Of a DNA stretch of 64,000 bases, positions 3,199-57,375 are shown piece by piece (position 1 is the stretch's first letter; each line of letters begins with the position of its first letter). The notes beneath the pieces are model-generated. The model did not search any database. It was not told where the DNA came from and was given only the letters and a program-made list of their open reading frames with translations. The translations under genes were made by a program, and so were the position numbers. The DNA is from an uncultured Bacilli bacterium (GTDB lineage: Bacteria > Bacillota_I > Bacilli_A > RF39 > UBA660): positions 2,159 through 66,158 of the forward strand of contig CAKOIN010000006.1 of assembly GCA_934086955.1 (NCBI GenBank). The letters run 5' to 3'.

Positions 3199-4648
3199 CT
3201 GCCTCCTTTACTTTCTTAGGTTTCTTATATAAGAATGATAAAAGACCACTCTTCTTCTTAATCAACCCATCTATATTATATTTTGAATTAATATTTTTGT
3301 AAATAGTATTGGCAAGATCATAAACAGTTCCTTCATTTAAAGTATAAGCCGTTTTTATTAAATAGTAATCATCAATAACAAGAGGAACTCTAACAGAAAA
3401 ATTAACTTTTCCAACTTCATGTTTTGAATTATACATTTCCTTCTCGATACCATATAAAGATGATATAAATAATGTAATCTTATTTTCAGAAACTAATTTA
3501 TCAAGTTCACCTATAATAACATCTATCTTTTTAAGTCTTTCAGCAATATCATCAACTAGTTTACAAGTATCAATCTCATAATTAATAATTATTAAATTTT
3601 CATTTGATGAATTTACTATTTGTAATAACTGAGAAGGCTCATAAATAAAACCACTATCAGAAGCCATATATCTTATACTTTCATCCACATTATTTCTAAG
3701 TCCAGTTAAATAATAATTTATATATGGACATTTTTCTTTTAAATCAATTACCAAACATTTAGCTTCAATAGCTTTAAGTGCACCAGCTGCATATGTTGAT
3801 GAAATAGCATAATTATACATAAATGGTACTTGTACATTACATTTAACTGGGAATAATGAATAATAACTCAATTTAGTTGTATCAATAGTTCTATATTTTT
3901 GACTACCAAGTTCAGTCATAAATAAATTGATGTCTATATTATTATAATTAAAGAATAATATTTGATCACCCTCATTAATAGCAAAACCATTATTAACAGA
4001 AAAAGTTCTTGTATGATTAGGTATTGTCTTAGTTTGAGTAAGAACCTCAACCTTTTTAGTTAAATCCTTCCACTTTTCACCAGCTTCAGTAACAAATGTT
4101 TTAATCATATCTCTAAAGCAAAGAATATTAGTTATATAATTTTCTCCAGTAACCATACCAACTTTAATAGTATTACCAAGTTCATAATTAAGTAATGTAA
4201 GACTTCTCTCAACACTCTTATAAACAGATAATGACTTTTGACATAATATTAAATGTACATAAATCATATGATTAGTATTTAAAGCAATCTCTTTTAAAAA
4301 CATTGATAATTGTGAAATAGTTCTATCATTTTCCCAATAACAAAACACATGTAATCTATTTTCATTCTCATTAGTTTTAGTTTCAATATACTTTAATAAT
4401 TGATTATTTTTATAAACATTATTAGAAAAATTATTTTCAATTATACTATATGTTAATGCTTCATTAATACCTATACTAAATTTTCTATAACCATCTTTAT
4501 AATCTAAATCTTTACTAGCAAGAGAAACAAATAATTTTTCCTTAGTAAGTCTATCCATATTTGGCATTAATGCTTCAGAATATACATTAACTGAATCAGG
4601 TTGTTCAACACCAAATCCATTAATTAGTAATAATATGTTCTTCTTCAT
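3176..4648 (-). CDS. Cofactor-independent phosphoglycerate mutase-like protein, apparently catalytically degenerate
   Basis: Colinear with iPGM: LLLINGFG resembles LILDGWG, ALMPNMDRL resembles A.TPNLDRL, and the C-terminal region resembles the ADHGN region. The Ser/His/Asp metal and catalytic positions appear substituted. Confidence 0.35.
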   Translation of the reverse strand: MKKNILLLINGFGVEQPDSVNVYSEALMPNMDRLTKEKLFVSLASKDLDYKDGYRKFSIGINEALTYSIIENNFSNNVYKNNQLLKYIETKTNENENRLHVFCYWENDRTISQLSMFLKEIALNTNHMIYVHLILCQKSLSVYKSVERSLTLLNYELGNTIKVGMVTGENYITNILCFRDMIKTFVTEAGEKWKDLTKKVEVLTQTKTIPNHTRTFSVNNGFAINEGDQILFFNYNNIDINLFMTELGSQKYRTIDTTKLSYYSLFPVKCNVQVPFMYNYAISSTYAAGALKAIEAKCLVIDLKEKCPYINYYLTGLRNNVDESIRYMASDSGFIYEPSQLLQIVNSSNENLIIINYEIDTCKLVDDIAERLKKIDVIIGELDKLVSENKITLFISSLYGIEKEMYNSKHEVGKVNFSVRVPLVIDDYYLIKTAYTLNEGTVYDLANTIYKNINSKYNIDGLIKKKSGLLSFLYKKPKKVKEADDGKASV

Positions 4649-12452: not shown

Positions 12453-13469
12453 ATGTGGAAAATAGGAAATGTAGAAATTAAAAATAGAATAGTATTCGCC
12501 CCAATGGCTGGTATATCTAATGAATCATTTAGAAAAATAATTAAATCTATGGATCCAGGACTTATTTATAGTGAAATGATAAGTAACATGGGAATTATAT
12601 ATAATAGTAAAAATACAATAGATATGTTAAAAATAAATAATGAAGAAAGGCCTATTAGCATACAAATATTCGGAAGTGATGAAGAAACATTTATCAAAGC
12701 AGCTAAATATATAGAAGAAAATATACATCCAGATATAATAGATATTAATATGGGATGTCCTGTACCAAAAGTAGCTCTAAAATCACAAGCAGGATCAAAT
12801 CTTTTAAAAAATCCAGATAAAATATATAAAATTGTATCTTCTATAGTAAATACAGTTAATATTCCAGTAACAGTTAAAATTAGAGCTGGTTGGGATAAAA
12901 ACTCAATTAATTGTGTAGAAGTTGCTAAAACAATTGAAAAAGCAGGAGCAAGTGCAATAGCTATACATCCAAGAACAAGAGAACAAGGATACACAGGAAA
13001 TGCTGACTGGACCTTAATTAAAAAAGTTAAAGATGCAGTTAATATTCCTGTTATTGGAAACGGTGATATTAAAACAATTGAAGATGCAAAAAGAATGTTA
13101 GAAGAAACCGGCTGCGATGCAGCTATGATCGGAAGAGCTACAATTGGAAATCCTTGGTTCATAAAAGAATGTGTAGAATATGTTGAAAATGGTAACATTA
13201 TAGATAAACCTACATATAAAGAAAGAATAGATATGTTAGTTAAGCATTATGAAATATTAAAAGAAGACACAAGTCCTAGAAAAGCATTACTTGATATTAA
13301 AACACATGCACTAGCATATCTAAAATATATTCCGAACTCAAAAGAATTAAAACAAGAAATAGCTTGTTCAAAAACAGAAGATGAATTTAATAATTGTATA
13401 AAAAAACTATATAATCACATAAAATGTATAAATTGTGAAAATAATAAAAATACTGACAATTCCTTGTAA
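12453..13469 (+). CDS. dus: tRNA-dihydrouridine synthase (DusB family)
   Basis: [14 protein letters not shown]-terminus and a TIM-barrel FMN-binding pattern. Confidence 0.8.
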
Positions 13470-21824: not shown

Positions 21825-21939
21825 ATTTTCAACCCCTTATATGAATAAATTTATTTAAAGTCAAAATATAATACCACATTTTTTTAAAAAGTCAAATCAA
21901 TTAAAAAAGACACTCATTTTACAAAATTCAATGAATATG

Positions 21940-22400
21940 ATATAATGTAGATGTATGGAGCATTATGCTAGTCAAACATACCACTAGAAGATGGGGCTAA
22001 AAATCCATCAATTGTGTAAAAATGATACTTTATATATTTTGCTTCTTTCGCCCAGATTGGGGTGGATATATAATTTTAGATTTAAGGAAAAGATGTAATG
22101 GCATATATCCGAATCCTTATATCAAATCGAAGAACACGAACACACATGTCGTGAGTGAATTATTGGGATAGAAATTGAAAAATAATTTGCAAAAGCGAAT
22201 AAAAGTGATTTATGTTTGTTTGGGAAAACCTCTAGTATGCCTATATTATAAGGATTGAAGTGCGGACTAAGTGGTGATCGAGTGATCATTATGGCAACAA
22301 ATGGTTAATTCTTTTAAAGAGAAATCGCCCTAGGGTAACCGAAGGTAAGAATTAGAGAAATTCAACTCGACCAAAGCCGTAAAATTAATTTATAATATTC
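21940..22400 (+). ncRNA. Candidate large structured ncRNA (OLE-RNA-like)
   Basis: About 450 nt, ORF-free and clearly GC-enriched relative to the flanks. Many local helices (GGATATAT...ATATATCC, CCCTAGGG, GATCgagtGATC). Immediately followed by a roughly 20 kDa 4-TM protein, the arrangement known for ole-oapA. Boundaries are approximate. Confidence 0.3.
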
Positions 22401-22425
22401 CATACACAAAACCAAAGGGAGTTAA

Positions 22426-22950
22426 ATGAAAAAAGATAATTGGATAATAAAGGCATTTTTAATGACTTTTTTTATAGCACTAATTTTCAGTAGTGCTTCA
22501 AATTTTATAATTGCAAAATATAACAATACAATATTACTTATACTACTATGTATTTTATTTATTGGCATAGGAATATTATTTGATATAATTGGAACAGCAG
22601 TATTAACTGCAAATGAAGCATCATTTCATGCTAAAAGTTCTAAAAAAATAAAAGGTTCTAAAGAAGCTGTAAGATTAATAAAAAATTCAAGTACAATTGC
22701 AAGTATATGTAATGATGTTATTGGAGATATATGTGGAATAGTTAGTGGTTCAGTAGGAGCTATGCTTGCTATTAATATATCAGTAAAATTTGATTTATCA
22801 ACAATAATTGTAACATTATTAACAAGTTCAATAATATCTTCACTAACAGTTGGAGGTAAAGCAATTGGTAAAAAATATGCAATTAAAAAAAGCGATACAA
22901 TAATATTTGTAGTAGCAAAAATATTAAATAAATTAAAAATAGAGAAATAA
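22426..22950 (+). CDS. Four-TM small membrane protein, possible OapA (OLE-associated protein A)
   Basis: 174 aa with 4 predicted TM helices. Lies directly downstream of the structured non-coding segment. Confidence 0.3.
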   Translation: MKKDNWIIKAFLMTFFIALIFSSASNFIIAKYNNTILLILLCILFIGIGILFDIIGTAVLTANEASFHAKSSKKIKGSKEAVRLIKNSSTIASICNDVIGDICGIVSGSVGAMLAINISVKFDLSTIIVTLLTSSIISSLTVGGKAIGKKYAIKKSDTIIFVVAKILNKLKIEK

Positions 22951-29670: not shown

Positions 29671-30048
29671 TTAATAAACTTTAGGAAAATCCATTAAACC
29701 TTCCGTCTTTCCTTCTCTCCAATATATTTTGTTATCTTTAACTTCAAAACTATAAGTTACTTTATATTTATAATCATCATCACTTTTTTGATAATAAAAT
29801 ACTAGTTCAGACATACCATCATTATTACTCTCAAATACAAAAGATGTATCATCATGACTTACTTCTTTTAAACTATCGTTATTTATTTCATAAGTCCAAT
29901 CTTTACTTTCATCAAGTTCTTTATAATCAATAGTGACAGTATCTTCAAATACACTTAATAGTTTATCATCAAGTTTTGGTTCATAAAACATAATACCAAC
30001 AAGTCCTACAATAGTTAAAACAAATATAATTACAAATCTCATTAACAC
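29671..30048 (-). CDS. Small secreted or membrane-anchored hypothetical protein
   Basis: N-terminal signal-anchor. No domain recognised. Confidence 0.3.
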   Translation of the reverse strand: MLMRFVIIFVLTIVGLVGIMFYEPKLDDKLLSVFEDTVTIDYKELDESKDWTYEINNDSLKEVSHDDTSFVFESNNDGMSELVFYYQKSDDDYKYKVTYSFEVKDNKIYWREGKTEGLMDFPKVY

Positions 30049-30570
30049 TCCTTAATAAACAAAAAGCAACCAGTCCTGATAAAACTTGATTGCTTCGAGT
30101 TTCGAAAAAACTAATTATGAATCATTTATTTTATAATAATAATTATAAAATAAATACTTCTAAATATTATCAGTATTTAGCATAATTACTTATCATTTTG
30201 AGTTTTTCTTTCTCAACGATATATCATTTGTCCTTAGTAGATAAGTATTCTATTTCTTAAATTAATAAGACTATTTATTATTTATATATAATAAGTAATA
30301 TTAATTTATAAATAAGATAGATACATAAATTTATAATAAATTAATATTATAAATAAACATATAATTGAAATATAAATTTTAATATACCAAATATAAATAA
30401 TGAAATAAATATAGAATTTTTTCACTAAAATAATTTAGATTATATTTTATTATATAATATATAAATAATTAAATTTAAATACCACTAATAATTTATATAA
30501 CCAATTATCTATTGGACAATATTATTATATGAATATTATTATCAAATGTCAATACTTTTTTAAAAAAAAT

Positions 30571-32128: not shown

Positions 32129-33538
32129 TTATATCATACTTTTAGTATTTTTATTTGTTTTATTAATTTCAAAGTAAAAAGTGGTTCCTTTATTAACTTT
32201 ACTATCAACACCATATTTAAAATTATGACTATCAAGTATAGTTTTTACAATAGATAATCCAAGTCCAGTACCAACAGCATTTCTTTTATGTTTTTTCTCA
32301 TTATGATAGTACTTATTCCAAATATATTTAATATCTTCCTTTTTTATACCTTTTCCAGTATCTCTTATCTTAACAATAACTTTTTTCTTCTCATTAACAA
32401 TATCAATATAAACAGTTTTATCATCACCAGTATAATTAATCGCATTATTAATTAAATTATATATAACTTGTTCAATTCTCTTCTTATCCCCCATTACCAT
32501 AATAGATTCTTCATTTTCATAAACAAATTGATATCCTTCTGAATCTATAAGTATATAATATCTTTTAATAACATCTCTAATTAATTTGTCTAAATCAAAT
32601 TCCTCTATTTTAAGTTCATAAGTATTAGATTGTAGCTTAGATAAATCCAATATATCACTAACAAGTATATTTAATCTATCAGTTTCTTCAATTATTATAT
32701 TTAAATTTTCATTTCTTTTTTGAACTGACATATTTTCAAAATCTTTTATCATTTCAGCATAAGCTTTAATCATTGTAAGCGGTGTTTTTAAATCATGACC
32801 TACATTAGCAAGTAAATCTCTTCTTAATTCATCTGTTTTAGATAATTCATTTTTAGCAAGGTCGAATGTAGAAGCAAGTTCTCTTATCTCTTCTATTTTA
32901 CTATCAGTAGAAAATTTAACATTAAAGTTACCCTCAGCAAGTTTTCTTGCTTGTGAACTTAAATCTACAATTGGTTTTGAAATAAGTCTTGATATAAAAT
33001 AACCTATTATTAATGAAATAGAAAATATAATTATAGATATATATAAGAATTGACTTTTTAAAAGTCTAATTGAAGCATCAAGAGGTTGTATAGATGAATT
33101 TAAAAATATATAAATATCATCATTATATTTTAATGCTTTAACTAATGTTTTATTATTAAATCTTTTATTATTAAATATTGTAGTAGATTCAGTTTTACCA
33201 CTTTCAACAAAAGATTTAACATATTCTGTACCAGTTTTCGAATCTCCAATTAAACAACCTTGATTATACATATTAGAAATTATATTAATATTACCATTAT
33301 GATAAACAGAAATACATATTCCATATTCATAAGCAATATCTTCAAGTTTATAAATATCAAGATCATTAGTCGTTTTTAAATTACTAACCACATCATTTAA
33401 TTGATTAGTTTTATAAATTTCATAAAAATAATTTAAAAGAAGTATCTGCATAAAAAAAAGAAATAGTAAAATAAAGCATGAAAATCCCATAAGAAATGCC
33501 CATACTATATGTCTAATTTTACTATTCTTTAATTTCAA
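32129..33538 (-). CDS. Sensor histidine kinase (HAMP-less; HisKA + HATPase_c)
   Basis: Two TM segments, H-box ANVGHDLKTPLT, N/G boxes (NLINNAINYT, DTGKGI, GTGLGLSIV). Confidence 0.8.
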   Translation of the reverse strand: MKLKNSKIRHIVWAFLMGFSCFILLFLFFMQILLLNYFYEIYKTNQLNDVVSNLKTTNDLDIYKLEDIAYEYGICISVYHNGNINIISNMYNQGCLIGDSKTGTEYVKSFVESGKTESTTIFNNKRFNNKTLVKALKYNDDIYIFLNSSIQPLDASIRLLKSQFLYISIIIFSISLIIGYFISRLISKPIVDLSSQARKLAEGNFNVKFSTDSKIEEIRELASTFDLAKNELSKTDELRRDLLANVGHDLKTPLTMIKAYAEMIKDFENMSVQKRNENLNIIIEETDRLNILVSDILDLSKLQSNTYELKIEEFDLDKLIRDVIKRYYILIDSEGYQFVYENEESIMVMGDKKRIEQVIYNLINNAINYTGDDKTVYIDIVNEKKKVIVKIRDTGKGIKKEDIKYIWNKYYHNEKKHKRNAVGTGLGLSIVKTILDSHNFKYGVDSKVNKGTTFYFEINKTNKNTKSMI

Positions 33539-34187
33539 ATTTATACCCCATTCCTCTAACAGTAGTTATTAAATCTCTATACTCCTTTAAATTATTCCTA
33601 AGCATTTTTATATGTGTATCTATTGTTCTATCATTACCTAGATAATCATAATTCCATACATTATTTAAAAGTTGTTCTCTTGATAAAGCAATACCTTTAT
33701 TACTTATAAAATATACAAGTAAATCATATTCTTTTGGTGTTAACATAAGTTCTTTATCTTTAATATACACAGCATGTCCTAAATAATCTACCTTTAAATC
33801 TTTATAAACAAAAGTATTTTCTTCACCTTTATATCTTTTTAATATTGCATTTATTCTAGCCATTAATTCTTTTGGACTAAATGGTTTAGTCATATAATCA
33901 TCTATTCCTAAATCAAATCCAGCTAATACATCATATTCCTCACTTCTTGCTGATAACATTATAGTTGGAGTATTATATCTTTTCTTAATTTCTTTATAAG
34001 CTGTAAAACCATCCATTTTAGGCATCATTATATCCATTATTATAAAATCAGCATCTCCGGCTTTTTCAAGTGCTTCCACACCATTTTCAGCTTCTATAAC
34101 ATCATATTTATTTTCAAAACAATACTCTTTAATAACATCTCTAATTAATTTTTCATCATCAACTATTAATACTTTCACTACTACCAC
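33522..34187 (-). CDS. OmpR-family response regulator
   Basis: Receiver domain (LIVDDE, DIMMPKMDG) plus winged-helix (TIDTHIKMLR...GMGYKF). Confidence 0.8.
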   Translation of the reverse strand: MVVVKVLIVDDEKLIRDVIKEYCFENKYDVIEAENGVEALEKAGDADFIIMDIMMPKMDGFTAYKEIKKRYNTPTIMLSARSEEYDVLAGFDLGIDDYMTKPFSPKELMARINAILKRYKGEENTFVYKDLKVDYLGHAVYIKDKELMLTPKEYDLLVYFISNKGIALSREQLLNNVWNYDYLGNDRTIDTHIKMLRNNLKEYRDLITTVRGMGYKFEIKE

Positions 34188-37638: not shown

Positions 37639-38139
37639 TTAAAATATTTTTTTAAAGAATTCTAATATCTTAAAATCATATTTTATCTCTTCATCAAAAT
37701 TATCATCTATCATACACAAAGGAGGATATAAAATACACCAATAATTATTTCCTTTTGCCTCTCCAATAGTTACTACTAATGATTCATATTCACCATCTTT
37801 ATAAGTAATTCCATTGTATTTTTTAACTGGAAAATAATTCATTCCATAATTAACCTCAAAATTCATATTATAGTTATTATTATTAAAAAGTCTCTCTATT
37901 TCTTCTTCAATATTACTTATATTATTAATAATATTATTTCTAGTAATTTCCTTATCATTATAATCATTAAAAACATATTTAGATATTTTATTAACAACCA
38001 TTTCTTTCATAAGAATATCTTTACTAGAATTACTATTAGAAATAACTCTAAATCTAATCGCATCATCATTACTATAATTTTCAATATTAAAAAGTATTAC
38101 ACCTATAATAAACAATATTATAATTAACAATTTTTTCAT
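37639..38139 (-). CDS. spoIIR: Stage II sporulation protein R-like
   Basis: IRFRVISNSNSSKDILMKEMVVNKI matches the SpoIIR hallmark (RFHVIANSDS..D..LKL.VRD). Syntenic with prmC-prfA, as in Bacillus. Confidence 0.5.
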   Translation of the reverse strand: MKKLLIIILFIIGVILFNIENYSNDDAIRFRVISNSNSSKDILMKEMVVNKISKYVFNDYNDKEITRNNIINNISNIEEEIERLFNNNNYNMNFEVNYGMNYFPVKKYNGITYKDGEYESLVVTIGEAKGNNYWCILYPPLCMIDDNFDEEIKYDFKILEFFKKIF

Positions 38140-51150: not shown

Positions 51151-52623
51151 TCATTTGTATTCTATTAAATTTACCAATGAATTTCTAAGTTCTACAAAAT
51201 TTTGATATTTATTTATATATTTATATATATCTTTTAAAAATTCTTCTCCACTTACAATTCTTCCATCTTTTAAATAAACTATAGAATCAATAGAAATTGA
51301 ATCTAATACATTATTTTCTTTAAAATATTCTTTAACAGTAGTTTTTTTGCCATCAAAAGTATCAACAACTTTATTTCCATATTCAATATTTAAAGGAAAC
51401 ATAAATACTTCTTTTTTTGAAAAATCTTCTTCCTCTTTGATATTTAATTCTACTTTATAGTTATTTTTAATAGCAAATTTTAATATTTTATTTACTTCAT
51501 CTAATGGAAATCCCATTTTTTTATAAGCGAAGAATCCACTTGAAAATAATAACATTAATTGATATATATGATCATTATTCATATTTAAAAAATTTAAGTT
51601 TTGAGCAACATTTTTATAGTTATCAGATAAAATCTTACTATATATACTATAAAAATAACTATAATACTTACTACTTTCTTCTTTTTTTATGACATTTTCA
51701 TAAAATTTTGAATATATAGCATTTAAATAATCTTCACTACCAAATGAAATAATCCTTTTATCATCTTTATGTTCAAAATATATCATCTTATCTTCATCTA
51801 ATTTAAGATTAAACTCACTCATTTCAAAACTTCCTATATCTAAAGATGAGTTATAATCAAAAAGCTCAAATACATCTTTATTATTAATAATAATATCTAA
51901 TGTTTTATATATTATTAAAAGCATCCTTTTTTTATTTAATTTTCTTTCTATTTTATACTTATTTAATATATATTCATAATAATCTTTTAATATAGAAAAA
52001 TTTTCAATTTCAAAATTTTCTTTCTTAAAATCACTAAAATATTCGTATAAAAGCAACATATAAAAATTTTTAAAATTATAAGGTCTATATTCAGAAGAAA
52101 TTCCTAACAAATTAGTTTGTGGTATGAAAGGAATTATTCTTGATTTAACTTCATTTTCGATATCATTATCACTTTTAAAGAAATTAATTATCTTTCTTGC
52201 ATTATTTACATTATCCACTCTTATTTGTAAAAGAGGATTTTTAACTACCTTCATTAACTTAATTTTAGAATTTATTTTATTTTCTATTAAAAAATTCAAA
52301 ATTTTTATTGTTATTTTTTCATAATTATTTTCAAAAACTGGTACATCAATTATGATATCAGGTATTGAAACATTCTGTAAATTATATTCTAGGTTTATTT
52401 TATAAGAATATTTAAATTCTTTATATGAGAATTTTGCCTTACTTTCGGGCAAAATTGACAATATCTGTTCAAATATTTTTTTGGTTATTTGAATTATATT
52501 TTTATTTAAATCACCTATTTTTACATTAAAACTTAAACATGTATTTATAAATTCTTCAAAATTTTTTTGTTCATAAATTGTATATAACTTTTTAAAATAA
52601 TCTTCTATCTGCATTCTATCCAT
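51151..52623 (-). CDS. Hypothetical 490-aa protein inserted between rpmH and dnaA
   Basis: Long uninterrupted ORF with no motif recognisable by eye. Its position interrupts the normally adjacent rpmH-oriC-dnaA arrangement. Confidence 0.35.
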   Translation of the reverse strand: MDRMQIEDYFKKLYTIYEQKNFEEFINTCLSFNVKIGDLNKNIIQITKKIFEQILSILPESKAKFSYKEFKYSYKINLEYNLQNVSIPDIIIDVPVFENNYEKITIKILNFLIENKINSKIKLMKVVKNPLLQIRVDNVNNARKIINFFKSDNDIENEVKSRIIPFIPQTNLLGISSEYRPYNFKNFYMLLLYEYFSDFKKENFEIENFSILKDYYEYILNKYKIERKLNKKRMLLIIYKTLDIIINNKDVFELFDYNSSLDIGSFEMSEFNLKLDEDKMIYFEHKDDKRIISFGSEDYLNAIYSKFYENVIKKEESSKYYSYFYSIYSKILSDNYKNVAQNLNFLNMNNDHIYQLMLLFSSGFFAYKKMGFPLDEVNKILKFAIKNNYKVELNIKEEEDFSKKEVFMFPLNIEYGNKVVDTFDGKKTTVKEYFKENNVLDSISIDSIVYLKDGRIVSGEEFLKDIYKYINKYQNFVELRNSLVNLIEYK

Positions 52624-52659: not shown

Positions 52660-52850
52660 AAATATTATGTTAACTTATTTTTGAATTTATTATGTTAACT
52701 TTATCAACAATGTATCAACATTTTATGTTAACTTATCAACAAGTTATTAACAATTCAAGTTTACATAATAATTTTAAATTGTTGATATTGTTGATAACTA
52801 TAAAAAATAATCTAAATTAAAGGAAAAAAATGTTTACAAAATGTGGATAT
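52660..52850. promoter_or_regulatory. oriC DnaA-box cluster upstream of dnaA
   Basis: TTATCAACA at about 52701 and 52733, GTATCAACA at about 52712, the complement TGTTGATAA at about 52789, TGTGGATAT at about 52841, and TATGTTAAC repeated three times. Confidence 0.6.
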
Positions 52851-52950: not shown

Positions 52951-54342
52951 ATGGATATTGAAGATATATGGGTAAAATTCTTATCAAAAATAAAGTCAAA
53001 AGTATCTTTGATGTCATATAATTACATATTCAAAGATCTTAGAATTCATTCTTATGACGATAGTAAAATAGTTATAATAGTACCAAACAATGAATTATTA
53101 CTACAAAATATAACTAAAAACTATGTAACATTAATTGAAGATACATTGAATGATATAACAAATGATACATGTACTATTGAATATATCTTTCAAAAAGATG
53201 TTGATAAATTGTCAAAAAAGAAAGAAAAACCAAGAATTATTGAAGAAAATATAGAGGAAGACTTTAATGATTTAAAAAATTATAAATATTCAAGTAATTT
53301 TAATCCAAAACATACTTTTGATACTTTTATAGTTGGAGACTCAAATAAATTAGCATATGGCACAGCAATGGCAGTAGCACAAAATCCAGGAAAACTATAT
53401 AATCCATACTTTATTTATGCTAAAAGTGGACTTGGTAAGACACATTTAATGCATGCAATAGGTAATTACATTGTTCTTCATTCAGATAAGAGAGTCCTAT
53501 ATATTAAAGCAGAAGAATTCGCAAATGATTACAGAGCTATAATAAATACTAAAAATAAATATGGTAACAATATAACTTATTTAGAAGCATTTAGAGAAAA
53601 ATATAGAGATGTAGATGTATTAATGATAGATGATATTCAATTTTTAGATAATAAAGTAAAATCACAAATGGAATTCACTAATACATTTAATAGTTTATAT
53701 GAAAATGAAAAACAAATAGTAATAGCTTCAGATAGATCAATAAATGATTACGAATTATTAGAAGAAAGGCTTAAAACAAGATTTAGATGGGGCTTAACTT
53801 CATCCATTAATCCACCAGATATAGACTTAAAGAAAAATATTATAAAAAATAAAATAATGGTATATAACTTTGATTTAGATATTAAAGATGAGGTGGTTGA
53901 ATATATAGCAAGTAATTGTGGAAGTAGTGTAAGAGATTTAGAAGGAGCCATAACAAGAGTGGTTGCCTATAAAGCAACATTCAATATATCAGAAGTAACA
54001 TTAGATATAGCAAGAGAAGCTCTACAAGAATTTGTTTCAAAAACAGTATACAGAACAAATTCAGTAAGTAAAATAATAGATATAGTTGCTAAATATTTTG
54101 GCTTAGAACCTGCGATGTTAAAAGGTAAAATGAAGAAAAAGAATGTAACTGATGCAAGAGCAATTGCAATGTATTTAAGTCGAATAATGACTGATGAAAG
54201 CCTGCAAAGAATAGGATTAGAATTTGGAGGAAGAGATCATTCAACTGTTATATATTCACATGAAAAAATTTCTAACGAATTAAAAACAAATACAACACTT
54301 CAAGAAGAAATTAAAACATTAAAAGAAAAAATTTGTGAATAA
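52951..54342 (+). CDS. dnaA: Chromosomal replication initiator DnaA
   Basis: AAA+ Walker A GLGKTHL. C-terminal DnaA-box-binding domain (RAIAMYLSR...GGRDHSTV). Confidence 0.95.
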   Translation: MDIEDIWVKFLSKIKSKVSLMSYNYIFKDLRIHSYDDSKIVIIVPNNELLLQNITKNYVTLIEDTLNDITNDTCTIEYIFQKDVDKLSKKKEKPRIIEENIEEDFNDLKNYKYSSNFNPKHTFDTFIVGDSNKLAYGTAMAVAQNPGKLYNPYFIYAKSGLGKTHLMHAIGNYIVLHSDKRVLYIKAEEFANDYRAIINTKNKYGNNITYLEAFREKYRDVDVLMIDDIQFLDNKVKSQMEFTNTFNSLYENEKQIVIASDRSINDYELLEERLKTRFRWGLTSSINPPDIDLKKNIIKNKIMVYNFDLDIKDEVVEYIASNCGSSVRDLEGAITRVVAYKATFNISEVTLDIAREALQEFVSKTVYRTNSVSKIIDIVAKYFGLEPAMLKGKMKKKNVTDARAIAMYLSRIMTDESLQRIGLEFGGRDHSTVIYSHEKISNELKTNTTLQEEIKTLKEKICE

Positions 54343-54480
54343 ATTAACAAGTTACTAACATCTTAACAACGATAAGTTTACATAAAAATGTAGTATTTAT
54401 CGTATTATAAATGAGTTATCAACAATATTAACACTCTATAATAATAATAAATATATATAATAATAAGGAGGAAGAAAATT
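54343..54480. promoter_or_regulatory. dnaA-dnaN intergenic DnaA box(es) plus AT-rich unwinding element
   Basis: GAGTTATCAACAATATT box followed by ATAATAATAAATATATATAATAATAA. Confidence 0.45.
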
Positions 54481-55599
54481 ATGAAAATGTTAATAGAAAA
54501 AAATATTTTAATGGAAGGACTAAATTGTGTAAGTAAAGCTTTATCAACAAGAAATATAATTCCAGTATTAAATGGTATTAAATTTGAACTTACAAAAGAA
54601 GGATTATACTTAACTGCAACAGATAATGATATTACTATACAAACATTTATTGATAAAAAAGATATTAAAAGTATAGATGAAGTTGGATGTACAATCATTT
54701 ATGGAAAAACTTTATTAAATACTATTAGTAAATTACAAAATACAAATATACTAGTAGAAAATTTTGAAAATAATGAAGTATCATTTAAAACAGAAAGTGG
54801 TGGAATTTACGACTTCCCTTGTTTTAATCAAGAAGACTTTCCTAATATTAAATTAGAAGAAGTTAAACATCCTATCAAATTAGATAGTCAAAAATTTAAA
54901 GAAATAATTAGTAAAACATCATTTGCTTGTTCACTTCAAGAAAGTAGACCATTATTAACTGGTGTTAATATAAAGTTAATAGGTGATATATTTGAATGTG
55001 TTGCTACTGATTCTTATAGATTATCAAAAGTAACTATTAAATTAGATTCAATGTATAGTGAAAATATTAATATGGTAATACCTGCTAGAAATATAAATGA
55101 ACTTGTTAAAACAATCGGTAGTGAATCTGAATTAGAAATACATGTATTTCCAAATAAAGCACTATTTAAATTTGATAATATAATATTTCAAACATCATTA
55201 TTAAATGGAACTTATCCTAATACAGATAATTCAATACCAAAAGAATTTAAATATAAAATAAAAGCTAATTTAAAAGATTTATATAGCTTATTAGATACAG
55301 CTTCTTCATTAACTCAATCAAAAGATAAGAATATAGTTGATATGGAAATTAATGGTAGTGATCTAATAATAAGAGCTGCAAGTACAGAAGGAAAAGGAAA
55401 AGATAAAATTAACATCACTAATGAAACAGAAAATAATATTAAAATATCTTTCAGTGTTAAATATATGATGGAAGCATTAAAAGTATTTACACAAGAAGAA
55501 ATATATATATTATTAAATGGAGAAATTAATCCAATAATATTAAAAGAAACAGAAAATGAAGAATTAATTGAATTAATTTTACCAATGAAGACATACTAA
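54481..55599 (+). CDS. dnaN: DNA polymerase III beta sliding clamp
   Basis: Three-domain beta-clamp colinearity. Confidence 0.9.
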   Translation: MKMLIEKNILMEGLNCVSKALSTRNIIPVLNGIKFELTKEGLYLTATDNDITIQTFIDKKDIKSIDEVGCTIIYGKTLLNTISKLQNTNILVENFENNEVSFKTESGGIYDFPCFNQEDFPNIKLEEVKHPIKLDSQKFKEIISKTSFACSLQESRPLLTGVNIKLIGDIFECVATDSYRLSKVTIKLDSMYSENINMVIPARNINELVKTIGSESELEIHVFPNKALFKFDNIIFQTSLLNGTYPNTDNSIPKEFKYKIKANLKDLYSLLDTASSLTQSKDKNIVDMEINGSDLIIRAASTEGKGKDKINITNETENNIKISFSVKYMMEALKVFTQEEIYILLNGEINPIILKETENEELIELILPMKTY

Positions 55600-55622
55600 A
55601 AACGAAGAAATTCGTTTTTTTT
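55600..55622 (+). terminator. Hairpin AACGAA-GAAA-TTCGTT followed by TTTTTT after dnaN
   Basis: Seen directly in the sequence. Confidence 0.6.
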
Positions 55623-55650
55623 ATTTCAAAAAAATAATTTTTTTACTTTT

Positions 55651-55677
55651 TTCGACATATTTCGACAAAATTCGACA
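55651..55677. promoter_or_regulatory. Three direct TTCGACA heptamers at exact 10-bp phasing (reverse complement of the Spo0A 0A-box TGTCGAA)
   Basis: ttcgacatatttcgacaaaattcgaca, just upstream of the comK-like ORF and downstream of dnaN. Confidence 0.45.
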
Positions 55678-55726
55678 AATAGTGTGTGCTATTATAGTGG
55701 CCATTAAAAAGAAAGGGGGAAAAATA

Positions 55727-56182
55727 ATGAATTATGAAATTACTTATGATACACAAGTAATAGCACCTATTGATAAGAACACAGCAAAAGTAATAGAAAC
55801 TGATGCAGAATATATAATAGAAACTCCCGTGTTAAATATTCTTGAACATAGTTGTGAATATTTTGGAAGTTCTTATGAAGGAAGAAAAGAAGGTACTAAG
55901 AAGTTGTTAGGCATAACACATAAATCTCCAATAATAGTTGAAGAAAGCAGAAAAATAATATTTTTTCCAACTTCATCAGCCGAAAATGAAGATTGTATAT
56001 GGATTAATTTAGAAAAGATAGATAAATATTTCAAATTAGGTCCAAAAAAATCAGCAATAAGATTTCAAAATGGTGATTTTATAGAATTTGATGTATCATA
56101 TGGATCACTTTCTAATCAAATTTTAAGAGCTACTAGATTAAAATTTATACTTGAAGAAAGAATATTAAAAAAAGATAATTAA
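55727..56182 (+). CDS. comK: ComK-family competence transcription factor homolog
   Basis: LEHSCEYFGSSYEGRKEGTKKLLGITHKSPIIVEESRKIIFFPTSS, DCIWINL and VSYGSLSNQILRATRLK align to B. subtilis ComK (VDRSCRFFGSSYAGRKAGT...HKPPIMVDPSNQIFLFPTLS...CGWI...ISYNSFENQVYRTAWLR). Start taken at ATG 55727 after AAAGGGGGA. The track ORF begins at an upstream GTG. Confidence 0.6.
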   Translation: MNYEITYDTQVIAPIDKNTAKVIETDAEYIIETPVLNILEHSCEYFGSSYEGRKEGTKKLLGITHKSPIIVEESRKIIFFPTSSAENEDCIWINLEKIDKYFKLGPKKSAIRFQNGDFIEFDVSYGSLSNQILRATRLKFILEERILKKDN

Positions 56183-56292
56183 ATATAAAATTATCTTTTT
56201 TTATATATCATTTTATGTTATAATTATATTGTCGTGTAGGTGTATCTATAATACATAAAAATTAAAAAAGGGGGGTTAAATGAAGTTTAAAA

Positions 56293-57375
56293 ATGAATAT
56301 AACAAAAATTGAACTAATGAATTTTAGAAATTATACTAAAAAGACCTTTGATAATTTTTCAAACTTAAACATCATTATTGGTAAAAATGGAATAGGTAAA
56401 ACAAGTATTATAGAATCCATTTATTTAGGAAGTTTAGCAAAATCTTTTAAAACAAATAATGAACTATCTATAATTAAAGAAGGAAAGGACTTTTTTAGAA
56501 TAAAAGTTTATTATTTTGATTATGGTCCAAAGAAGAATTTAGAATTATTTTTAGATAAAAATGGTAAGAAAACAAAAATTAATTCTAAACTACAACGAAA
56601 ATTAAGCGATTTTATATCACAATATAGAATAATTATGTTATCACCAGATGAACTAAAACTTATAAAATCTTCGCCAAATACTAGGAGAAACTATTTAAAT
56701 ATTCAATTATCACAATTACACAAAGAATATATTCATTATTTAAATAATTATACAATTTTAATAAAAAATAAAAATGATTATTTAAAAAAATTAATGCTAA
56801 ATAGCAATCTCGACACTAGATACTTAGATATATTAGATGAAAAGATTGTAGAAAATGGCATGAAAATATATGAATATAGAAAAAAATATATAGATTTGAT
56901 TAATAGTAATATTAATAATATATTTAAAAATTATACTAAAAATCAAAAAATTGAAATTAAATATGAATCTGACTATTCATTAGAAGATAAAGAAAAATTA
57001 ATAAACTTTTTAAAGAAAAATAGAACAAAAGAAATAAACTTAGGCATGACAAATCATGGTGTACACCGAGATGATTTTACTTTTTATCAAAATGGTAATA
57101 ATTCAAAAGAATATAGTTCACAAGGAATACAAAAATTAATCGTTTTAGCAATGAAATTATCCGAGGTAAAAATATTCATAGAAAACTATGATATAAAGCC
57201 AATATTATTGTTAGATGACTTATTTAGTGAACTAGACGAAGCTAACAGAAATAACATATTTAAATCATTAGATAAAAGTATACAGATATTTATAACAACT
57301 ACTGACTTAAAGAATATTAATAAGAAAATAGTTGATAGAGCAAAAATATATAATTTAGACAAGAAGGAGAATTAG
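56293..57375 (+). CDS. recF: DNA replication and repair protein RecF
   Basis: Walker A GKNGIGKTS. SMC-like signature and Walker B (LLLDDLFSELD). Confidence 0.9.
   Translation: MNITKIELMNFRNYTKKTFDNFSNLNIIIGKNGIGKTSIIESIYLGSLAKSFKTNNELSIIKEGKDFFRIKVYYFDYGPKKNLELFLDKNGKKTKINSKLQRKLSDFISQYRIIMLSPDELKLIKSSPNTRRNYLNIQLSQLHKEYIHYLNNYTILIKNKNDYLKKLMLNSNLDTRYLDILDEKIVENGMKIYEYRKKYIDLINSNINNIFKNYTKNQKIEIKYESDYSLEDKEKLINFLKKNRTKEINLGMTNHGVHRDDFTFYQNGNNSKEYSSQGIQKLIVLAMKLSEVKIFIENYDIKPILLLDDLFSELDEANRNNIFKSLDKSIQIFITTTDLKNINKKIVDRAKIYNLDKKEN

Follow-up and report, generated by a model that had tools for sequence, protein, structure and literature searches.

What a homolog of the competence regulator ComK is doing between dnaN and recF, and what sets its transcription there, are the questions raised by a 64,000-nucleotide (nt) stretch of DNA from an uncultured Bacilli bacterium of the GTDB lineage RF39; UBA660 (GenBank assembly GCA_934086955.1, contig CAKOIN010000006.1, positions 2,159 to 66,158 of the forward strand), which was analyzed over its full length and is called the window here. 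The gene is preceded by three copies of the heptamer TTCGACA, and the reading favored in this work, to which we assign a probability of roughly 0.65, is that transcription of this monocistronic comK homolog would be set directly by phosphorylated Spo0A (Spo0A~P), with activation favored over repression.

The open reading frame (ORF) behind the heptamers is a genuine full-length member of the ComK family, in agreement with the initial annotation, which had placed a ComK homolog in the dnaN-recF slot in lieu of the usual S4-like gene yaaA.

55727-56182, plus strand: comK-family gene, 151 amino acids (aa), monocistronic, matching Pfam PF06338.

The PF06338 profile spans the product end to end (residues 2-146 against profile positions 3-151 of 152), with an expectation value (E) of 2.4e-45 and a score of 154.4 bits against a cutoff of 22.3, and more than 1000 close homologs, mostly without names, are present in public assemblies. 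Identity with Bacillus subtilis ComK is 36% over 148 residues (E 8e-32), an approximate figure. Translation starts at the ATG at 55727, which is supported by a ribosome-binding site (AAAGGGGG) 8 nt upstream, by the N-termini of homologs and by public gene calls of 151 aa; a GTG at 55682 was considered as the start and rejected on the same three grounds.

Upstream of the gene and beyond the dnaN terminator, whose hairpin lies at 55598-55619, the three heptamers form a regular array, with first letters at 55651, 55661 and 55671.

55651-55657, plus strand: 0A-type box 1, TTCGACA, exact match, centered at about -48 from the inferred start site.
55661-55667, plus strand: 0A-type box 2, TTCGACA, exact match, centered at about -38, with its TCGACA 22 base pairs (bp) upstream of the -10 hexamer.
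55671-55677, plus strand: 0A-type box 3, TTCGACA, exact match, centered at about -28 and ending 12 nt before the -10 hexamer.

The period is exactly 10 bp (a 7-bp box and a 3-bp gap), which places all boxes on the same helical face, and Tandem Repeats Finder reports a period of 10 with 3.1 copies. TTCGACA occurs five times in the window against 1.35 expected, three of these occurrences being the ones before comK, and arithmetic for a genome of 25% guanine plus cytosine (GC) gives about 7e-9 expected occurrences per window of three in-phase copies. Read on the minus strand, the heptamer gives the 0A core TGTCGAA, matched at 7/7 positions all three times, and 7 bp plus 3 bp is a known tandem geometry for such boxes; the initial annotation had made both the spacing and the identity of the repeats its starting point, and both withstand inspection.

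Is the array more than an accident of one genome? Scanning one genome for each species gave 80 loci, in most of which comK lies in the same gene neighborhood. Among 38 syntenic loci with ComK identity above 66%, 27 hold a perfect triple, 33 hold three boxes with at most one mismatch each, and all 38 hold at least one box. At 46-56% ComK identity (n = 27), the corresponding counts are 1, 4 and 22, and none of the nine non-syntenic comK loci has a perfect triple, a set of three near-perfect boxes or even a single box. The repeats are thus conserved in relatives, most clearly as perfect triples in the closer group, which indicates more than chance. An ungapped alignment of 39 loci anchored on box 1 provided information values for each column: information in the spacer peaks in the three heptamers, whose C, G and C reach 2.5-3.0 bits, while the 3-bp gaps between them vary freely (AAA, AAT, TAT, TAA, TTT, CAA and others), the number of boxes stays at three and the gap to the -10 hexamer stays at 12 nt. 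Fixed copy number and register combined with free spacers point to an array of protein-binding sites and not to a slipping microsatellite.

Several lines of evidence suggest that the protein that binds is Spo0A. Specificity for the 0A core TGTCGAA is common to Spo0A of B. subtilis and Clostridioides difficile (PMC3485338), two 0A boxes 3 bp apart constitute a footprinted Spo0A site at the A2c promoter of phages Nf and phi29 (PMC2731898), and Spo0A~P binds the comK promoter (PcomK) directly in B. subtilis (PMC3297582). A metagenome collection was scanned for the exact triple array (TTCGACA three times at a 10-bp period), and two unrelated families of high-GC Firmicute contigs carry the array about 125-140 bp ahead of spo0A itself (L091, 1031-1057; L200, 773-799), the Spo0A protein of the former having the canonical TASRVERAIRHAIEVAW helix. 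It also precedes spoVS in contig L124, with the same 12-nt gap to the -10, small cytoplasmic orphan HisKA/HATPase kinases in four high-GC contigs (L114, L133, L189 and L196), soj in L094, and nine further ComK-like genes, some of them much more divergent. The Firmicute contigs with the array at spo0A, spoVS, the orphan kinases and soj range from 26 to 64% GC. Because autoregulation of spo0A through 0A boxes is classical, the array at spo0A is good independent evidence for the type of operator. Its presence at spo0A and at sporulation-linked genes across Bacilli and Clostridia suggests that the phased triple is a reusable, putatively high-affinity Spo0A operator module, and speaks against a binder peculiar to one lineage, such as the ComK homolog. 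Wiring of Spo0A output to the ComK-like regulator, which we infer from comparative genomics, appears well supported.

The same scan turned up other settings for the pattern. Promoters composed of three boxes, 11-12 nt and a -10 precede genes without assigned function in low-GC contigs (L104, 7335-7629; L140, 6614-7594; L154, 1121-1617). One of these genes encodes a 303-aa protein without a Pfam match, another a 145-aa membrane protein situated between mutL and radC and near a gene for an M50 (SpoIVFB-like) protease, and in L104 the array stands before a distinct ORF that is truncated and likewise lacks a Pfam match. A different set of contigs, of 35-49% GC and environmental origin (L097, L098, L101, L108, L113, L136, L163, L169 and L178), carries arrays of the 10-mers TTCGACATGG or TTCGACACCC followed by GAGCTCACCAACC-type repeats; these look like repetitive extragenic elements that contain the heptamer by chance.

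Does the genome encode Spo0A? Sporulation genes are present in the window and beyond it.

37639-38139: SpoIIR gene, E 3.7e-33.
6-1602: genes for SpoIID and an M23 peptidase.

Just past the right edge of the window, in contigs that are identical over the shared region, a BofA-like gene follows recR and a SpoVT gene follows mfd (13029-13205 and 20113-20408 of L085). These are sporulation-specific genes (SpoIID with the M23 peptidase, SpoIIR, BofA-like and SpoVT) in a lineage that is often treated as non-sporulating. RF39 has been predicted to form spores, spo0A being an absolute requirement for sporulation and some RFN20 families being without it (PMC10868615). Taken together, the SpoIIR, SpoIID, BofA-like and SpoVT genes and the prediction for RF39 make it probable that Spo0A is present in this genome. 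A tblastn search of all retrieved sequences with B. subtilis Spo0A found spo0A only in unrelated high-GC contigs. The initial annotation had proposed coupling of Spo0A to ComK and/or to origin activity; the first of these is supported by the conserved array, the spo0A-linked arrays, the sporulation genes and the precedent of B. subtilis (PMC3297582), while the second, considered below, is not supported.

How the operator would act depends on the promoter that it adjoins, the parts of which are as follows.

55598-55627, plus strand: dnaN intrinsic terminator, an AT-rich hairpin (55598-55619) followed by a T-run; RNA fold of -7.1 kcal/mol, z -2.4.
55638-55650, plus strand: T-rich tract, possibly an UP-like element or a bend; consensus tTTTTTa.attt at 0.5-1.0 bit per column in 39 loci.
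55685-55695, plus strand: core promoter, made up of TGTG (-16 element), one base (c) and the -10 hexamer TATTAT at 55690-55695.
55712-55719, plus strand: ribosome-binding site AAAGGGGG, read from the sequence and conserved as aaaGGGGg in relatives.
56166-56203, plus strand: comK terminator, a hairpin and T-run overlapping the stop codon; -11.8 kcal/mol, z -5.0, with 0 of 200 shuffled sequences folding as well.

Hairpins with T-runs after both dnaN and comK indicate that comK is a transcription unit of its own, and a dnaN-type hairpin and T-run is seen in most relatives too. A consensus terminator scan missed these AT-rich hairpins, which were found by RNA folding instead; likewise, a scan for sigma-70 consensus promoters called none before comK. 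Transcription would start near 55702, so that the boxes would cover -51 to -25. Across the 39 aligned loci, TRTG stands ahead of the -10 in 34, and the -10 agrees with TATAAT in 4-5 of its 6 bases in 33 and is a perfect copy in none. There is no -35 at a spacing of 16-18 bp in any of them: where one would canonically lie, the hexamer shares 0-2 of its 6 bases with TTGACA, and 3 of 6 in a single locus.

A distant clade differs in its leader. In L043, L045, L046, L051, L054 and L070 (at about 3880-4000), some 90 nt separate the 0A-like boxes from comK; within them, AAATAGGGG is followed by a hairpin in which the two arms show covariation from species to species (such as ATTATTTTCT/AGAAAATAAT and AATTATTTTTTT/AAAAAATAATT). 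An Rfam search with these long comK leaders matched no family.

In the mechanism proposed here, Spo0A~P would bind the three 0A boxes head-to-tail on one face of the helix and so set comK transcription. It would stand in for the absent -35 contact, in the manner of PhoB at pho boxes and of Spo0A at spoIIG and spoIIE, and would thereby activate comK, with ComK coming on as cells pass into stationary phase or in early sporulation. Activation is modestly favored over repression because none of the species has a -35 and the -10 is never TATAAT despite an AT-rich genome, because the same geometry occurs at spoVS, an early sporulation gene, and because the repeats end 12 nt from the -10, like PhoB boxes. 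The 22-bp distance from the TCGACA of box 2 to the -10 is that of the Spo0A-activated spoIIG promoter. Since the sites are of consensus grade, the promoter should respond to low levels of Spo0A~P, whichever the sign.

Several observations weigh against this reading. The window contains no tandem boxes beyond the comK promoter, which leaves the operator without the backing of a local regulon, and it contains no spo0A, the only receiver domain found in it being of the OmpR type. A machine-learning classifier scores RF39 metagenome-assembled genomes (MAGs) as non-sporulating (PMC12536801). In the metagenome scan, many matches to the triple pattern were plain 10-bp tandem repeats in unrelated, non-Firmicute contigs, so that the pattern alone is not diagnostic. 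Finally, the sign of control could be negative: box 3 falls inside the core promoter, between the usual positions of the -35 and -10; the R1 site for Spo0A at B. subtilis comK overlaps the -35 and represses, closing the competence window (PMC3297582); and tandem 0A boxes 3 bp apart over the core of the phage A2c promoter repress as well (PMC2731898).

These last points bear on the strongest of the alternatives, which keeps the operator and Spo0A~P and reverses the sign. It supposes that an extended -10 promoter is active during growth and that Spo0A~P, bound even at a low level to three high-affinity boxes, occludes RNA polymerase, making ComK a growth-phase factor that is turned off at entry into sporulation. 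The TRTG element at -16 can give activator-independent activity, and ComK is as conserved as DnaA, DnaN and RecF and is placed among growth-phase replication genes. However, the promoter is systematically suboptimal in 39 species, which is typical of activator-dependent promoters, and the identical geometry is found before spoVS. The latter gene is induced at the onset of sporulation. Repression is accordingly regarded as the less probable of the two signs.

The ComK protein is informative on two points, the first being the level at which it is controlled. In B. subtilis, the C-terminal extension of ComK holds the MecA/ClpCP targeting motif (FMLYPK). The window ComK stops at the equivalent of B. 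subtilis residue ~158 and is without the C-terminal ~35 residues, and the B. subtilis-type tail, with its MecA/ClpCP targeting motif, is missing from 37 of 37 aligned homologs; the motif is a trait of B. subtilis-type regulation and does not define the family. Without this region, posttranslational gating of the B. subtilis type is unlikely and control is probably mainly transcriptional, so that the comK promoter would be the main control point of ComK. The second is DNA recognition. An AlphaFold model of the product (m3f7695cfe764) has a mean predicted local distance difference test (pLDDT) score of 70, with the most conserved segment, residues 44-65, below 50, and a Foldseek search with it returned weak, nonsignificant matches to LytTR domains (B. 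cereus 3d6w, ComE 4cbv and AgrA 3bs1; E 0.02-0.16). No solved structure of a ComK relative was found. Late competence genes (comG, comE, comF, dprA and ssbB) are absent from the 64-kb window.

Could the ComK-like protein itself recognize the heptamers, through a direct-repeat specificity evolved in this lineage? Autoregulation has a precedent, in that B. subtilis ComK is reported to activate its own promoter, the boxes and the gene are conserved together, and LytTR domains, which the model weakly resembles, bind direct repeats. The known ComK site is AAAA-N5-TTTT. TTCGACA differs from it, and no such AT-box is conserved upstream of comK in the 39 loci; the one AT-box-like string in the window is not shared across the alignment, and chance matches are frequent in AT-rich DNA. 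Furthermore, Clostridia-like contigs of high GC, in which ComK is presumed missing, also have the exact triple ahead of spo0A, orphan kinases and spoVS, and the structural match is not only nonsignificant but comes from a model in which the most conserved segment is poor. This explanation is considered improbable.

Slightly less credible still is binding by some other regulator of direct repeats, such as a response regulator of the OmpR/PhoB family or a CtsR-like repressor. Repeats of 10-11 bp period that end ~10 bp before a -10 are generally known as the classic PhoB/OmpR architecture, and an OmpR-type two-component pair is encoded in the window at 32129-34187. The CtsR operator, GGTCAAA-NAN-GGTCAAA, is likewise a heptad direct repeat with a 3-bp spacer, and TGTCGAA shares 5/7 positions with its heptad. 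Against either candidate, the 0A core is matched at 7/7 positions three times and no other regulator is known to have the core TGTCGAA; the heptamer stays invariant even across lineages that share only 41-50% identity in DnaA, and in Clostridia the array is found next to spo0A, which suits the uniquely conserved specificity of Spo0A. The CtsR operator was also rejected as a description of the array because it comprises two A/GGTCAAA heptads with a NAN spacer, whereas the boxes here number three and match GGTCAAA at 5/7 positions.

The location of the gene has to be weighed in the same way.

54481-55599, plus strand: dnaN, DNA polymerase III beta clamp; Pfam DNA_pol3_beta, _2 and _3; syntenic in 71 loci.
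56293-57375, plus strand: recF; Pfam SMC_N; assigned also by synteny.

In the window, dnaA lies upstream of dnaN, and gyrB and gyrA lie downstream of recF; the GC skew turns near 52 kb in a genome of ~25% GC; and DnaA-type boxes (TTATCAACA, TGTGGATAT) cluster upstream of dnaA (52701-52850) and between dnaA and dnaN (54334-54424). These neighbors, the skew and the box clusters identify the region as the replication origin. A scan of the window found no DnaA box of the 9-mer TTATCCACA type between dnaN and comK. The idea that TTCGACA is a degenerate DnaA box was rejected, as the DnaA boxes here are of the TTATCAACA type and clustered elsewhere, and conservation at comK extends over no more than a 7-mer.

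The order dnaA-dnaN-comK-recF-gyrB recurs in 71 of the 80 loci, including genomes whose DnaA is only 41-50% identical to that of the window. That comK is a common, conserved resident of the slot, as this comparison establishes, does not undercut a regulatory role for the boxes, because they are conserved together with the gene. Eight of the nine non-syntenic loci come from named genomes of the Bacillus group (Bacillus, Siminovitchia, Peribacillus and a Bacillaceae MAG), in which comK is located elsewhere, and the ninth from an uncultured Erysipelotrichia MAG (L063). Records for the loci are labeled as uncultured Bacilli, Mycoplasmatota, Tenericutes, Erysipelotrichaceae, and Clostridium sp. CAG:524 or CAG:1000; those with the dnaN-comK-recF order presumably belong to GTDB RF39 and neighboring orders. 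Median identities to the window, taken over 65 complete syntenic loci, are 68% for ComK, 65% for DnaA, 68% for DnaN, 69% for RecF and 71% for GyrB, and the equality of ComK with its replication neighbors implies constraint of housekeeping grade. No S4 or yaaA-like gene occupies the dnaN-recF slot in the window or in any of the 71 syntenic loci inspected, and the comK-family gene has evidently displaced yaaA as the permanent occupant in low-GC Bacilli of a broad uncultured lineage. Limited literature searches turned up neither a description of the dnaN-comK-recF arrangement nor one of competence in RF39 or related orders; the conserved position of comK at the origin appears to be undescribed so far.

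A few loci depart from the common pattern or have additional features. The slot is longer in L050 and L007, and the possibility that yaaA is hidden there was rejected, as the inserts are unrelated ORFs. An extra ORF of 195 aa lies between dnaN and comK in L050 (3288-3875) and L056, where the 0A boxes are degenerate and a perfect DnaA-type box, TGTGGATAA, takes the place of the comK -10 region (~3960-3990 in L050). Between rpmH and dnaA of the window, an ORF of 490 aa without family assignment (51151-52623, minus strand) adjoins the DnaA-box cluster; it is present in much of the clade and evolves fast, its identity ranging over 35-94% where that of DnaA, at the same loci, is 57-100%. Throughout the 80 related loci, the only tandem boxes away from the comK promoter are oriC-side pairs in two distant syntenic relatives (L057, 1007-1023; L060, 286-302), in which two perfect TTCGACA copies 3 bp apart lie upstream of dnaA, besides the boxes at comK; these pairs recall the Spo0A sites in B. 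subtilis oriC.

The least probable explanation, that the boxes serve the origin, with Spo0A next to dnaN inhibiting initiation or organizing the origin during sporulation, can draw on the block to initiation by Spo0A~P at 0A boxes of B. subtilis oriC (according to work cited in PMC2731898), on the distance of only ~1.2 kb to the dnaA-dnaN DnaA-box cluster and on the pairs in the rpmH-dnaA spacer of L057 and L060, but the coupling to origin activity that the initial annotation had also entertained is disfavored because the boxes hold an invariant 12-nt register to the -10 and travel with comK, lie outside both DnaA-box clusters without overlapping any DnaA box, have no exact counterpart in the oriC spacers of the window, and occur as triples at ordinary promoters far from origins elsewhere.

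If control of comK by Spo0A~P is accepted, what would be new is the arrangement and not the circuit. To our knowledge, B. subtilis is the only organism for which Spo0A-to-ComK coupling, a textbook cell-fate circuit, has been described; the link there is weak, partly indirect and subject to many other inputs. Here, the link would be stripped to a minimum, namely one promoter, three perfect sites and no MecA tail, and this minimal arrangement is kept across an order-level radiation of uncultured gut bacteria at an unusual chromosomal position. The extreme conservation, the clean operator architecture and the dnaN-recF slot are thus the additions to a known circuit. The comK locus offers a clean natural promoter for studying Spo0A at a site array that replaces the -35, the triple array offers a precise cis-motif for predicting Spo0A regulons in MAGs, and both bear on whether, and how, abundant uncultured organisms sporulate and/or become competent. 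A more far-reaching proposal, which must be called speculative and rather doubtful, is that in this lineage of reduced genomes the ComK homolog is not, or not solely, a competence switch but a core regulator embedded at the origin that integrates the level of Spo0A~P with replication status, sensed as gene dosage at oriC, and coordinates replication, recombination (recF, recA) or DNA uptake with sporulation. It might then be a streamlined replacement for the many layers formed by ComA, ComS, MecA, Rok and AbrB in B. subtilis, and the combination of three 0A boxes, 11-12 nt and a -10 might define a distinct class of Spo0A-dependent promoter without a -35.

Two structured RNAs elsewhere in the window deserve mention. 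An OLE RNA (219 bits) lies at 21939-22419 on the plus strand, directly followed by an ORF for a 174-aa membrane protein with a weak CNNM-type match (22426-22950); we take these to be perhaps the usual pair of ole and the gene for an OLE-associated protein, here in a gut lineage of 25% GC. A PGK RNA motif (82 bits) at 30160-30252 on the minus strand lies upstream of a 125-aa ORF without a Pfam match (29671-30048) and not of a phosphoglycerate kinase gene, with an [FeFe]-hydrogenase gene on its other side.

Comparison with known systems places the locus among several precedents, each of which it resembles in part. The S4-like gene yaaA (rlbA) is the usual resident between dnaN and recF in Firmicutes; the comK homolog occupies the same chromosomal slot and is of similarly small size, but the protein families are unrelated. 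For Streptococcus pneumoniae comCDE, Slager and colleagues reportedly described in 2014 how origin-proximal competence regulators act as gene-dosage sensors. A master-regulator gene for competence near oriC is common to that system and this one, whereas the families differ (ComE/ComX versus ComK). At E. coli promoters controlled by PhoB, direct repeats take the place of the -35 and stop ~10 bp short of the -10, and the activator recruits sigma region 4; the likeness to the comK promoter is one of architecture only, as PhoB belongs to another regulator family and its repeat differs (CTGTCAT, with a period of 11 bp).

Promoters controlled by Spo0A are closer. At spoIIG and spoIIE, 0A boxes overlap the -35 region, with a spacing of 21-22 bp between a -35-like hexamer and the -10. 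In box 2, TCGACA stands at exactly 22 bp, but the spoIIG and spoIIE boxes are weak and imperfect, with none in the spacer, whereas a third consensus box is present here at -31 to -25. The abrB site and the crystal structure of Spo0A-C with DNA show tandem 0A boxes spaced by 3 bp. This head-to-tail geometry of 7 bp plus 3 bp, shared also by the A2c promoter of phi29 and Nf, is the same as at comK; the abrB and A2c sites consist of two boxes and act negatively, the protected region at A2c overlapping the core promoter (PMC2731898), while three consensus boxes and a promoter without a -35 are found here.

The nearest relative is PcomK of B. subtilis (Mirouze et al., 2012; PMC3297582), which involves the same pair of regulator and target and, as proposed here, the same coupling of the phosphorelay to a competence regulator. 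Neither a conserved ComK AT-box nor a Rok or MecA layer is evident in the present locus. In B. subtilis, five dispersed and imperfect 0A boxes, each with one or two mismatches and one of them overlapping the -35 (PMC3297582), operate through antagonism with Rok and autoregulation by ComK, and the gene lies away from the origin and encodes a protein with a MecA-targeting C-terminus. Here, in contrast, three perfect, contiguous and phased boxes precede a tail-less ComK whose gene is fixed between dnaN and recF.

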